DNA of 63,981 nucleotides, counting the filler, from Octopus bimaculoides (lineage: Eukaryota): NCBI RefSeq assembly GCF_001194135.2. It is 9 parts of 8 records of this genome, joined end to end, with 100 filler letters (N's around TTAATTAATTAA, not from the genome) between each part and the next. Parts side by side here need not be neighbours in the genome. Positions count along the whole stretch, not along the records: positions 29,284 to 35,032 come from NW_026387200.1; 8 more parts are not named here. The stretch is one strand, 5' to 3'. The position numbers were made by a program, and so were the translations under genes. Below are positions 7,601-30,535 of this stretch, piece by piece. Below the pieces are notes generated by a model. It searched no databases, was not told the DNA's origin, and saw only the letters and a list, made by a program, of their open reading frames with translations. Every line of letters starts with the position of its first letter. Within the stretch, counting starts at the first letter, position 1.

Positions 7601-8389
7601 TAAAGTTTTGCAGGCTTCAAACAGAAACCTGGCTCGTTTAGGCTTAGATTACCATAATCTAAGTCACATGGAGCCAAATAAATAATGTTTTAAATAATAA
7701 TGATAATAATAATGTACACACATATATATATAAATATATATATATATATATCAACCACATGCACACATACAACGAGAACAGTATCAACAACAATGGACAT
7801 ACACATGCATGCTTTTGCATACTTGTGTGACTTTAGCTCTGTTTATAGCTATATCATCATAAATATATAATTGGACTCACTTAAAAACCTGTCTCTCTTC
7901 TCGTTATCAACTCACACATGCATATACACACATACTCAAATATGCACAAGCTCACACACATACTCCGTCCCCATGTAATATACTCAAGAGATCACATAAA
8001 AGAGCCTCGAGATCAACACACGACCAGCTAGAAATAGCAGCCAAATTTTCCTTTAATCATATTTCCAGCATCTTTAAGTAAAGTCAATAGATCTCTTAGG
8101 TTGTTTTTCAGTTTTCTCAAACAATTGAAATATCTATGCACAAAATTATACATAAGTAACTGATATACATATGTACTCTTAATGTAATTCTGAAACAAAC
8201 TTAGAGGTACAATACATATGTGTGTGTGTGTGTGTTTGTGTGCATAAATGTGTATGCGTGTATATGTATATAAACATATATGCATATGTATGCATGTATA
8301 TTTATATTAACCTGCTTTAACTTGCTCAAATTTAAACCTCTTGAGCACTACTGTGTTCTATACAGAGAATATCTGATTCTCATCTGGAG

Positions 8390-8990
8390 ATAGAAATGAT
8401 GTTCGGAGATTGCAAAATGAGGATGCTCACTTGCAAACTGATTACCCTAAAGCAGGAGCTAAAAGCTGTCAGTGAAAAACTCGGACATCAGAAGAGAATA
8501 ACCAAGAGAAGAACAATAAACAAAAACCTTAACTGCGACCAGGCAGCAGTATACAGAGACATGAGAGGAGGAGCAATAAACATCACAGAAGCTCCTTCAC
8601 AAGAAGACATAGACTCCTTCTGGAGGAAAATCTAGAGTGAAGGGAAGGAATTTAACCAAGATGCTCTGTAGTTGGAAGAAATCCGGAAAAAGTTATTGCT
8701 CCTGCGTTACATCCAAGACATACAACGTTGATGGTGAAACTCTTGCAATTGTGATCCAGAAACTCCAGGATGGAAAAGCACCTGGAAGAGACTTCATTGT
8801 TGGATATTGGTACAAGAAGCTAACCTTATACCGACCACATCTTATCAATTTGTACCAGCAAGCTTTCATTAGGAATAGTAGCAGACCACACTGGTTAGCT
8901 CTGGCCGAGACAAAATTGATCACCAAATGCAGAACCACCCACATGGTAAAAAGACTACCAGCCAATTGCATGCGAAAAATTAATGTATAA
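8390..8990 (+). mobile_element. R4/Dong-clade LINE, fragment just upstream of and into the RT
   Basis: DSFWRKI, KAPGRDFIVGYWYKKLT, PHWLALAETKLITK match the R4-type KAPG.D....W.KKL and P.W...G.T.LIPK motifs. Frameshifted. Confidence 0.8.
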
Positions 8991-9194: not shown

Positions 9195-10850
9195 ATGCTA
9201 AAATTGCTATAGAAGAACTTACTACACAAGCTGAAAATTGCAAAAGAGAATTACTGCACACTCTGACAAAATCTGGAACTCATATAATTTGGATATTAAT
9301 TTATACCACTGGTTATTGCATAAAGAAATAACAAAAATATACAAAATTGTGCCTAATAACACTTTAAGATCTTTGAGCTTATCCGCCAAGAAGATTATGA
9401 CCAACTTACAACATAGAAGAGCAAACTGAACCTTTCACACCTTCCAGACACCTCATAACAATTAAGAACCATAAAAATAATTTCTTAACAGACATGAAAG
9501 TTAGACTAATCTGCCCTAATAAATCTGATCTATATAAGCTAAGTAAATTAATCTTAGATGAATATATCCCTACTATAAAAAACAAAATCTCTCTAGAATT
9601 ATGATCAAATACCCATGATGCCATTTGTTGGTTCTCCAATATCCAGAATAAAAATAGTTATAAGTTCCTACAAATAGACATAGAGAACCACTACTACAAT
9701 TCTAAATAGCACTCTGATGTTCACTAAAAACACACTAAATTGACAATGAATGAAATTAAGGTAATCATAGAAGCTAGGCAATCTATAATAAAATTCAATA
9801 ACAAACTATGGGTAAGGAAGGACACCTCCAATTATTTTGACATCACTATGGGAGCCCCAGACTCAGCACAGGTATCTGTCTTAGTGGATATTTACCTATT
9901 ATCACATTTACATGAAGAATTCCCAGAGATTAGAGAAGGCCTTACAGAGATGATGCATTATTTATCCTTAAAAACATCTCAAATAGGAGATTTGAACTAC
10001 TAAAGAAAAAATATATAAGTTCTTTAAATGGTTTGGATTAACCATCACGATAGAAAAACAGCATAATTCTATTAACTATTTAGACGCTAATTGTAATTTA
10101 ATCACCGGATTACATGAACTGTGCATTAAACCTAACATATTAATCCACATAGCAGCCACCCAAACTTTATTAAAAGTGGACTTGTATGGGGCATTAGTAA
10201 AAGAATTTTGTATCTCTCGTCCAATGAAGATATCTTCTATAAGTATAAGGAACACTAAAACATTGCATTGGAAAAAGCGGGTTATAAGCAATTAAGTATC
10301 TTTACTGGGAGCCTTATAAAAATAACCCAAATAACATGAATCTTCAAAATTATAATAATATGAATAATAGCCAAAATATCTATAATAATAATAATCACAA
10401 TAAGAATAACAATGACAATAATAGTAGTAATAATAATAATACCAACATTAGATATGATAACAATAGAAATACTAATAATGGGAATGATAGGAATACCCAG
10501 AAAAATAATAATAACAATAAAAATTAAAATAATACATCTAAAAGAATCAATAAAGTCCCTGTTAGTAATTATAATATCAAGATAAATAAAATACATAAAT
10601 CGAATGGTAACAACCCTACCAAAGCTGATAGCTATAATAATAAAAATAACAATAGAAAGAATAATAGTTATACCCATAACTTTACGATCTACAATAATAA
10701 TGAGGGCAGTTTTTACATCAAAACAAAAATATTAAAAATAACAAGTGGAATAAAGATAACATCTGGCTAATAATCCCCTCCACAATACAACTAAAAACCA
10801 GTATAGTTAAATCTATAATAAAACTTATAAATAAGCACTTCAATATGAAG
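9195..10850 (+). mobile_element. Naiad-type Penelope-like element, degenerate RT and thumb
   Basis: ITKIYK, FDITMGAPDSAQVSVLVDIYLL, decayed YRDD (tacagagatgat, ~9946), GISKRILYLSSNE...ALEKAGY, and a decayed IW..PP...KT.I...LINKHF at ~10760-10840. Confidence 0.8.
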
Positions 10851-28180: not shown

Positions 28181-29024
28181 TAAGTATATATGAACACGTG
28201 TAGGCAAGCAAGTATATGCGTGAAATGACATACATAAAACAAAAACATACAAATCTGAATATATACATATATACATACATACAAACATGCATACATACAT
28301 ACATACATACACACATGCATACAAAAATACCCTGTTATTTGTGTTGAAATTCCAATGAAGGAGTATTGGAACTAGGTTAGAAAATAGAAACCAGCTCTTT
28401 CTCTATTGGCAAGAAATCATGAAAGAAAACTGAATCATGACGTACATACATATCCTCATGCGTACGCAAAGATTAATACGTGCAAATATACATATACACG
28501 TGTGTACATGCGCATATACACTTGCACAAAAGTTCACACAAGTAAATTAGCAATAAACAAGTTAAACCTACAAATAACCCACGAAAAAGAATTAATAAAT
28601 ATAGCAGTCTTAATAATAGAAATTTATAGTAATCTAAGAAAAGTTTTTGATTGATGAATGTAAATTGAATTTAACATCAACATTTTAGATCCAGCAATAA
28701 AAAATACCAGTAACAAATTAAATCTTATCATCTTTACTGCTCATACAAATACACAGCAATACTGATCGCTTCAATCAAGAAATAAAACCGAGGAAGCCTA
28801 CAAATGCAAATCAGCCTTCGAGCACTAATCTTCCTAATTAAACATGATGACATAGGAAATTCGAAAATTTAAAAGTACATAGTTTCAGCTAAAATATATA
28901 TGAATCATCAGTTTGAAAGAAAATCTGTTTCCACAAAAACATACATACGCATATGCACACACGCAAGCATACACATACATACGCAAGCAGGCGCGCGCAC
29001 ACATACACACGCAAGTACACTCAC

Positions 29025-29183
29025 AAAGATATCTTTTTATTATAGCCACACAGGGTTAAATACAGAAAATGGACAAATTACAAAGTAGAGCTTTTCTTGG
29101 TGGGGGGGATAATTTCGATCAAAAGGGATCGCGGGAAAAAAAGGTGGGGATTTCGATCAAAAGGGATCGCGGGAAGAAAAAAA
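29025..29183. repeat. Interspersed repeat end with CGATCAAAAGGGATCG units, second copy at 61790-62160
   Basis: Shared ccacacaggg...acaaat.caa.gtagagcttttc and the 16-mer units. Confidence 0.8.
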
Positions 29184-29283
29184 NNNNNNNNNNNNNNNNN
29201 NNNNNNNNNNNNNNNNNNNNNNNNNNNTTAATTAATTAANNNNNNNNNNNNNNNNNNNNNNNNNNNNNNNNNNNNNNNNNNNN

Positions 29284-30535
29284 GTGTTTTTTAGTAGAAG
29301 AACACTGTTTCATGGATGAATATTGCCGTCATACCAAATAATAAACATCGTCGTTCACGTACTTTTGCCATTTACCGCTTCTCGCAACTTTTATTTTTGT
29401 TCTGATAGTTTTATTAGTTTGAAATATTTTGTGTTGCACTTTGTTTATGTTTTTAGATCGAAGTGCTACTATAACAAACAAATTCGCATTTTCATTTCGG
29501 GACTTTTAAACTATCGACCAGTTGAACATTACCGTACTCACTAGAAATGGCAGTCAAAATCTGCCGAAAGTCATCATTTGTTGTCTTTAAACAAAGGAAT
29601 GATACATTTGAACATTTATTCTTTGATAAAGAATGTTTTACATAGAGTTCGGATACAAATCTGGGTACTATTAAAGCAGCGCGGACCCGAACGCGCAGTC
29701 GCGCGTCCGAGCTAGCTAGTCGTGAGTGGTCGATCCTAACCCTAACCCTAAACACGTATTCATTTGCACACGCGGGATAGGGTTAGGGTTAGGGTTAGGG
29801 ATAGGGACAGGGTCAGGGTTAGGGTTAGGGATAGGGTTAGGGTTAGGATCGACCACTCAAGACTAGCTAGCGCGGACGCGCGACTGCGCGTTCGGGTCCG
29901 CGCTGCTTTAGAAGTACCCAAATCTGTACTCGAAGAAAATATACAGTGAAAAAGCAAAGGCATTTCTATTGTTATTGACATCCACGGAGGAAAAGGTGGT
30001 TTCACTGCATTCGTGGTTTCACTAATTGAATAGGCTTGTTTTACATATAGACGAAAATTTGTATAGCACATTTGCTGAGAATTTCCATCTTTTAGTGGAA
30101 TTGATGTTTGATGAATGGATATTACTATCAAACGTCATAATAAACACCGCCTTTCACGTTCTTTTCCCATCATCGTATATCGCTTCTCGCAACTTTTACT
30201 TTTGTTCTGATAGTTTTCATGGTTTCTGATATTTGTGTTGTACAATGTTTATGTTTGACGACGGAAATGCTGCTTTAAGAAACAAATTCGCATTTTCAGT
30301 TACGAACTCATCACCAAGCGACCACGTGAATATCACCGCGTCCGCTAGAAATAACAGTCAAAATCTGTCGAAAGTTATGATCTGTTGTCTTTAAACAAAA
30401 GAATGAAACATTTGAATATTTATTCCTTGATACACAATGCTTCACAAAGAATTTGGATACTCATATATCGCACAAGTCAGTACTCATTGAAAATATACAG
30501 AGAAAAAGCAAATGCATTTCTATAGTTATAGATTA
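29284..30535 (+). repeat. Diverged tandem duplication, unit ~560 bp; the first copy carries a 257-bp insertion
   Basis: cgcttctcgcaactttta at 29376 and 30181; ttgtctttaaacaaa.gaatga and aaatatacag.gaaaaagcaaa.gcatttctat occur in both copies. Confidence 0.9.
29663..29919. mobile_element. Fold-back MITE-like element with 89-bp TIRs, internal telomeric repeats and 6-bp TSD AAATCT; superfamily unknown
   Basis: GGGTAC...GTACCC termini; arms 29663-29751 and 29831-29919 are reverse complements with about 5 mismatches; aaatct at 29657-29662 and 29920-29925. Confidence 0.88.

Follow-up and report, generated by a model that had tools for sequence, protein, structure and literature searches.

The genome of Octopus bimaculoides (RefSeq assembly GCF_001194135.2) holds a short fold-back element with telomere-like hexamers in both orientations, which raises the question of what kind of repeat it is and whether the hexamers define it. 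The original prediction described a young, unclassified transposon with a 6-bp target duplication that spreads interstitial telomere repeats. Here, we report a 255-bp gene-less element with GG...CC ends, an 8-bp duplication, and about a thousand copies. Its movement was likely driven in trans by a Merlin (IS1016-related) transposase (our rough probability, 0.8), and the copies probably form a new non-autonomous (MITE) family within the known superfamily Merlin/IS1016.

Raw reads and contigs from four public runs were aligned to positions 29350-30250 of the window (the whole stretch of DNA analyzed, 63,981 nucleotides). Run X19 (1,934 million letters read) gave 2,584 reads aligned to the element region; the read alignment skipped 29769-29853 as repeat, and figures on unit variation refer to the left hexamer tract.

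The window is AT rich (GC content, 0.37) and crowded with microsatellites and transposon scraps. A microsatellite at 28891-29038 drew five sub-threshold Rfam matches. Just before a gap, a 31-bp sequence recurs almost unchanged in direct orientation, the two copies 38 bp apart (29112-29180), as a result of either duplication in place or overlap in the assembly. Transposon remains include a broken mariner-type transposase (38223-38680; N-terminal piece matching Pfam HTH_48, E value 8.9e-16), a Tc1/mariner-like transposase fragment (17379-17675; weak DDE_3 match under the curated cutoff, E value 0.005), and short frames at 8345-8990, 9728-10295, 19268-19564, and 40163-40659, which resemble decayed LINE/Penelope elements by eye, with no supporting Pfam match. 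Recurrent gap blocks, each with a 12-bp AT-only spacer between two runs of 44 N (18544-18643, 21255-21354, 29184-29283, and others), are assembly filler and nonbiological.

Ends of the element and its target site

The ends were set by raw reads of the same species. In X19, 320 reads are loose ended before 29664 and 110 behind 29918 (among the rows listed, 13 of 163), and consensus agreement of the loose ends is 0.35 in each set, i.e., the flanks are unrelated. Contigs of run X2 break at the identical two positions (12 at 29664 and 14 at 29918). Read depth in X19 is 46 at 29663 versus 660 at 29671, and the G at 29663 is present in at most 35 of 366 junction reads (about 10%). Because of these read ends and the low depth at 29663, the outer G and C are assigned to the target, and the element spans 29664-29918 (255 bp, GGTAC...GTACC), in place of the 257 bp and GGGTAC...GTACCC first proposed.

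Exactly abutting these ends is an 8-bp direct repeat, CAAATCTG, with its left copy at 29656-29663 and its identical right copy at 29919-29926 (both plus strand); the chance of such a repeat is about 2e-5. The AAATCT noted earlier on either side is there, and the 6-bp duplication and GGG ends read from it arose because one target base was counted into each arm. The 8-bp duplication is known from this single copy, 150-nt reads being too short for a 255-bp element, and a single copy alone permits nested 4-, 6-, or 8-bp direct-repeat readings because the target is semi-palindromic. At 29647-29935 the semi-palindromy exceeds the duplication, with 7 of 9 bases pairing on each side of a central hexamer; the flanks thereby stretch the apparent arms to 103 bp and make the boundary ambiguous.

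A 6-bp duplication thus stays formally possible on one copy, and the hexamers are present, but the reading built on them (an unclassified element with GGGTAC ends, IS3EU/Polinton-like or telomere bearing in the manner of ciliate TBE) is highly improbable: the outer G is in at most a tenth of junction reads, IS3EU ends are TA..TA (PMC10045372), and TBE has telomeric repeats at its outer ends, an ANT duplication, and three open reading frames (PMC4724952). Each named relative was also rejected as a candidate in its own right. IS3EU/GingerRoot requires TA..TA ends and a 6-bp duplication and Polinton a 6-bp duplication (PMC10045372), against GG..CC and 8 bp here; TBE requires outer telomeric repeats and ANT, against repeats 71 bp inside and 8 bp here. 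Crypton (tyrosine recombinase) was dropped on the 8-bp duplication and GG ends.

The host segment exists as two diverged direct non-coding copies, at 29306-29978 and 30090-30532, and the element splits the first. The second (plus strand), a diverged paralogue of the interrupted segment of about 430 bp, is 78 to 85% alike in pieces and has an empty site with no insert and one related 8-mer (6 of 8 bases alike to the duplication); 13 additional bases lie immediately left of the site. Because this paralogous segment lacks the insert and holds a single related 8-mer, the element is present by insertion. X2 contig depth is low (50 to 205) across the left part of the first host-segment copy, so the host segment is not itself a high-copy repeat. 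No element-skipping joint representing an empty allele was among those listed, in X19 (depth below 1x) or X2, a search that is uninformative.

A palindrome that contains telomere-like repeats in both orientations, in an assembly with many gaps (4,681 N), could also be the scar of a fused or folded chromosome end or an assembly artifact, with no transposon involved. That account is scarcely credible, as hundreds of differing flanks all meet the element at two fixed bases, the site has an 8-bp duplication and a paralogue that is empty, and a contig of another run equals 29489-29693 with zero differences over the left junction (30 letters in the element, near threshold).

Architecture, copy number, and age

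The left terminal inverted repeat (29664-29750, plus strand, 87 bp) begins with GG and was delimited by self-alignment and reads and compared with bivalve Merlin ends; the right one (29832-29918, minus strand, 87 bp, 4 mismatches against the left) closes at the base behind which 110 reads are loose ended. The fold-back reported before is real, although its arms of 89 bp with about 5 mismatches measure 88 bp with 4 mismatches when the start is taken as 29663. According to the reads, the family-wide portion of the left arm stops near 29738, at about 75 bp. A left telomere-like tract of the CCCTAA type (29735-29751, plus strand, 17 bp, slightly under three units) overlaps the left arm's inner end, a unique non-coding core follows (29752-29773, no strand assigned; 22 bp, as first described), and a GGGTTA-type tract (29774-29847, plus strand, 74 bp, 12.3 degenerate units) has its final 16 bp within the right arm. 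The predicted DNA fold of the element has an energy of -114.9 kcal/mol (z = -20.9; none of 200 shuffles as stable). Pfam gave no match for either of two open reading frames crossing the element, Rfam gave none on the element, and a pattern search and BLAST of the window returned the two arms only, with no second copy.

In X19 the summed depth over both arms is 2,135, compared with a flank depth of 0.76 (based on about three reads' worth of bases), which gives about 1,400 two-armed copies; when a genome of 1.5 to 5 Gb is assumed, the number is 830 to 2,760. Family size is therefore roughly a thousand copies (10^3), and the predicted multicopy, non-autonomous element with terminal inverted repeats and a true target duplication is borne out. 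Short, bounded by terminal inverted repeats, non-coding, present in high copy number, and flanked by a target-site duplication, the element is a MITE.

Most aligned reads are 90 to 99% alike to this copy (at least 99%, 138 reads; 95 to 99%, 935; 90 to 95%, 1,090; below 90%, 421), and three of this copy's four arm mismatches are private to it. C>T and G>A account for 34 of the 66 changes listed; of the 14 such changes seen individually, 12 sit at CpG. The family is moderately aged and decaying, mostly at CpG sites; "young" suits the 138 of 2,584 reads at 99% or above but not the 1,511 below 95%. Arm subfamilies differ by an 8-bp unit at 29692-29703, where 226 reads are loose ended before 29692, with letters repeating the arm, and 54 reads lack 8 letters at 29703.

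Part of the element was found in 18 of 24 listed runs, 16 of which carry the same species label. Runs of the other two organisms (B and C) share 25% of words, hexamers only; organism B yielded one 110-bp contig with two pieces of 24 to 26 bp on the hexamer tract, and from organism C nothing aligned. Neither is counted as a carrier, and absence is not proven. Elsewhere, viral contigs gave no match to a 25-nt end pattern and metagenome contigs none to a 22-nt pattern. Nine metagenome matches to an 18-nt pattern were rejected as chance, because at eight loci 8 to 13 of the next 53 bases were alike, the remaining locus had 2 of 9 alike, and a partner arm was lacking.

Probable assignment to Merlin

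Merlin elements have GG ends, 8- or 9-bp target-site duplications, terminal inverted repeats of 24 to 462 bp, and often internal tandem repeats (PMC8101967). Here, both arms have terminal 5'-GG-3', the duplication is 8 bp (on one copy), and the inverted repeat is 87 bp in this copy and about 75 bp family-wide. As context, Merlin is abundant in octopods: Merlin proteins number 191 in O. bimaculoides (PMC8101967), O. vulgaris has 18 Merlin families, 2 of them recently active (PMC13282606), and automatic annotations show Merlin as largely cephalopod restricted among molluscs (PMC10294476).

The element's first 28 bases, in read-majority form, were compared by eye, ungapped from base 1, with the three Merlins in the bivalve library of PMC10294476 (additional file 31). 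Identities were 18 (Merlin_M.phylippinarum_6), 13 (Merlin_M.coruscus_12), and 12 (Merlin_S.glomerata_5) of 28; four GG-starting MULE or PIF ends printed alongside gave 6, 6, 8, and 8. With GG excluded, the best Merlin match is 16 of 26 (P about 2e-4), and the other two (P about 0.07 and 0.14) are not significant singly. In the 257-bp register the best match drops to 8 of 28. It is the GG ends, the 8-bp duplication, and this in-register likeness to mollusc Merlin ends that make the fit, so that an element described as unclassified finds a place once its ends are corrected.

Positions 18 to 25 carry a motif, GCGG(A/T)CCC. As GCGGACCC it stands in the left arm (29681-29688, plus strand) and at the same positions in Merlin_M.coruscus_12, and as GCGGTCCC it stands there in Merlin_M.phylippinarum_6; in the octopus reads the T form (29685 A>T) accounts for 374 of 1,095, or roughly one-third. 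Each form occurs once in the library text searched (354,229 characters, one strand, about the first 400 letters of each of 762 entries), both times at a Merlin end. The motif is support and not proof, because it was chosen after the ends had been viewed. Repbase assigns non-autonomous elements on positions 1 to 11 with at most one mismatch (PMC4455052); against the three bivalve Merlins, which are distant, the best comparison has five mismatches. Among 16 chosen open reading frames of the window (of 161 listed), none matched DDE_Tnp_IS1595.

Long composite arms with variable short internal repeats would also be expected of a non-autonomous Mutator/Foldback element (MULE) moved by a MuDR-type transposase. 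The three bivalve MULE ends seen (of 39) begin with GGT, as this element does; Tm1 and similar Mutator/Foldback families have variable internal arm repeats and 8- to 10-bp duplications (PMC3169594); MuDR duplications range from 4 to 10 bp (PMC10045372), with 8 bp inside that range; and 21 Mutator families have been active recently in O. vulgaris (PMC13282606). Tm1 duplications are, however, mostly 9 bp (PMC3169594), and past the first three bases the likeness to those 3 of 39 MULE ends is at chance (6, 6, and 8 of 28). The motif at positions 18 to 25 is likewise confined to Merlin entries in the library text searched, and we regard a MULE origin as unlikely.

The superfamilies hAT, Zisupton, Novosib, and P generate 8-bp duplications, and the ends of hAT, P, and Novosib usually begin with CA or TA. 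The element begins with GG, unlike those ends. Membership in one of these four is decidedly unlikely, even though hAT, with 21 families, is active in O. vulgaris (PMC13282606) and cephalopods are reported to have Zisupton and Novosib (PMC10294476), for in the library text searched the motif occurs in two Merlins only, and that library has 133 hAT entries but no Zisupton or Novosib.

For Merlin, the preferred assignment, a course of events can be proposed by analogy with the established behavior of DDE cut-and-paste transposons. The element likely derived from a longer Merlin via internal deletion. A Merlin DDE transposase encoded elsewhere would bind the outer part of the arm, with the GCGG(A/T)CCC motif probably among the bases contacted, and excise the element. 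It would then cut the target with an 8-base stagger and insert the element there, repair filling in the gaps. In one branch of the family, slippage where the arm meets the interior likely added or removed hexamers, which were then carried along, and copies would later have decayed, mostly at CpG sites.

Telomere-like tracts and known systems

The inner arm ends had been called telomeric, and a CCCTAA-type tract is present on the left; the right tract is longer and more degenerate than first described, with 7 of 12 units perfect and a longest pure TTAGGG run of three units. Where depth is 1,975 (at 29729), 518 reads (about 26%) diverge from the arm at 29738, short of one complete hexamer; about 49% of reads continue through 29745, and 67 reads have one extra unit. 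At least a quarter of arm reads thus lack the tract, an internal and degenerate array whose number of units varies. Because those 518 reads exit at 29738, the tract does not define the family, and of the supposed spread of interstitial telomere repeats there remains a part of the family that carries short tracts. Depth falls from 1,975 to 442 at 29755, so the core is reached by part of the arm reads only; the latter depth suggests some 600 copies with this core, as a rough estimate.

The telomere-like hexamers are probably passengers. Tandem repeats occur inside Merlins, e.g., a 6-bp unit of unstated sequence repeated 39.5 times in Merlin-1_Aplcal (PMC8101967). In the hemichordate Ptychodera flava, shared sequence close to Merlin hits contains short GGTTAG-type tracts (an 11-mer matched 30 times in a supplement file, 5 of these matches seen), near and not necessarily inside elements. 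TTAGGG is the one cephalopod telomere motif determined experimentally (PMC13218726), and it is possible that telomerase-made repeats were captured while the founding deletion was repaired. A bolder version, in which several hundred copies form a branch that took up genuine telomeric repeats and now scatters CCCTAA tract, core, and TTAGGG tract as a tiny chromosome, is very unlikely. If it were true, telomere proteins would bind each tract-bearing copy, which could seed a telomere on both sides of a break, and such copies could steer chromosome healing and rearrangement.

The element is an ordinary kind of repeat and reveals no new mechanism. For repeat annotation, the ends of a family numbering about a thousand copies are now corrected and its likely superfamily is named, and the candidate end motif GCGG(A/T)CCC may aid in classifying other mollusc Merlin MITEs. 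Short interstitial TTAGGG-like matches in this genome can stem from a transposon and mislead telomere-motif scans in assembly. No description of this family was found in the literature; Dfam, Repbase, or octopus libraries may hold an entry. Three element-end motifs were absent from 12 of 33 bivalve supplement files, and two of them were absent from file 24.

Among known systems, the non-autonomous members of Merlin/IS1016 (PMC8101967; Repbase Merlin-N, S1 Table) share the GG...CC ends and 8-bp duplication, and their range of arm lengths, internal tandem repeats, and non-coding state are also as here; the differences are that the internal repeat here is a telomere-like hexamer and that the files searched held no matching family sequence. 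The three bivalve Merlins (PMC10294476) are autonomous consensuses of 1.6 to 1.7 kb that differ from the element at positions 3 to 8 and have no hexamer tract within the first 400 letters shown. Mutator/Foldback Tm1 is a fold-back element with variable short inner-arm repeats, as here, but has asymmetric end motifs and a duplication of mostly 9 bp, with no end similarity to the element shown (PMC3169594). TBE (PMC4724952), the analogy first drawn, resembles the element in having telomere-type repeats within inverted repeats, with the C-rich strand 5'; it differs in being a Tc1/mariner element with three open reading frames, an ANT (3-bp) duplication, and repeats at its very ends, whereas the octopus hexamers lie 71 bp inside and are optional.
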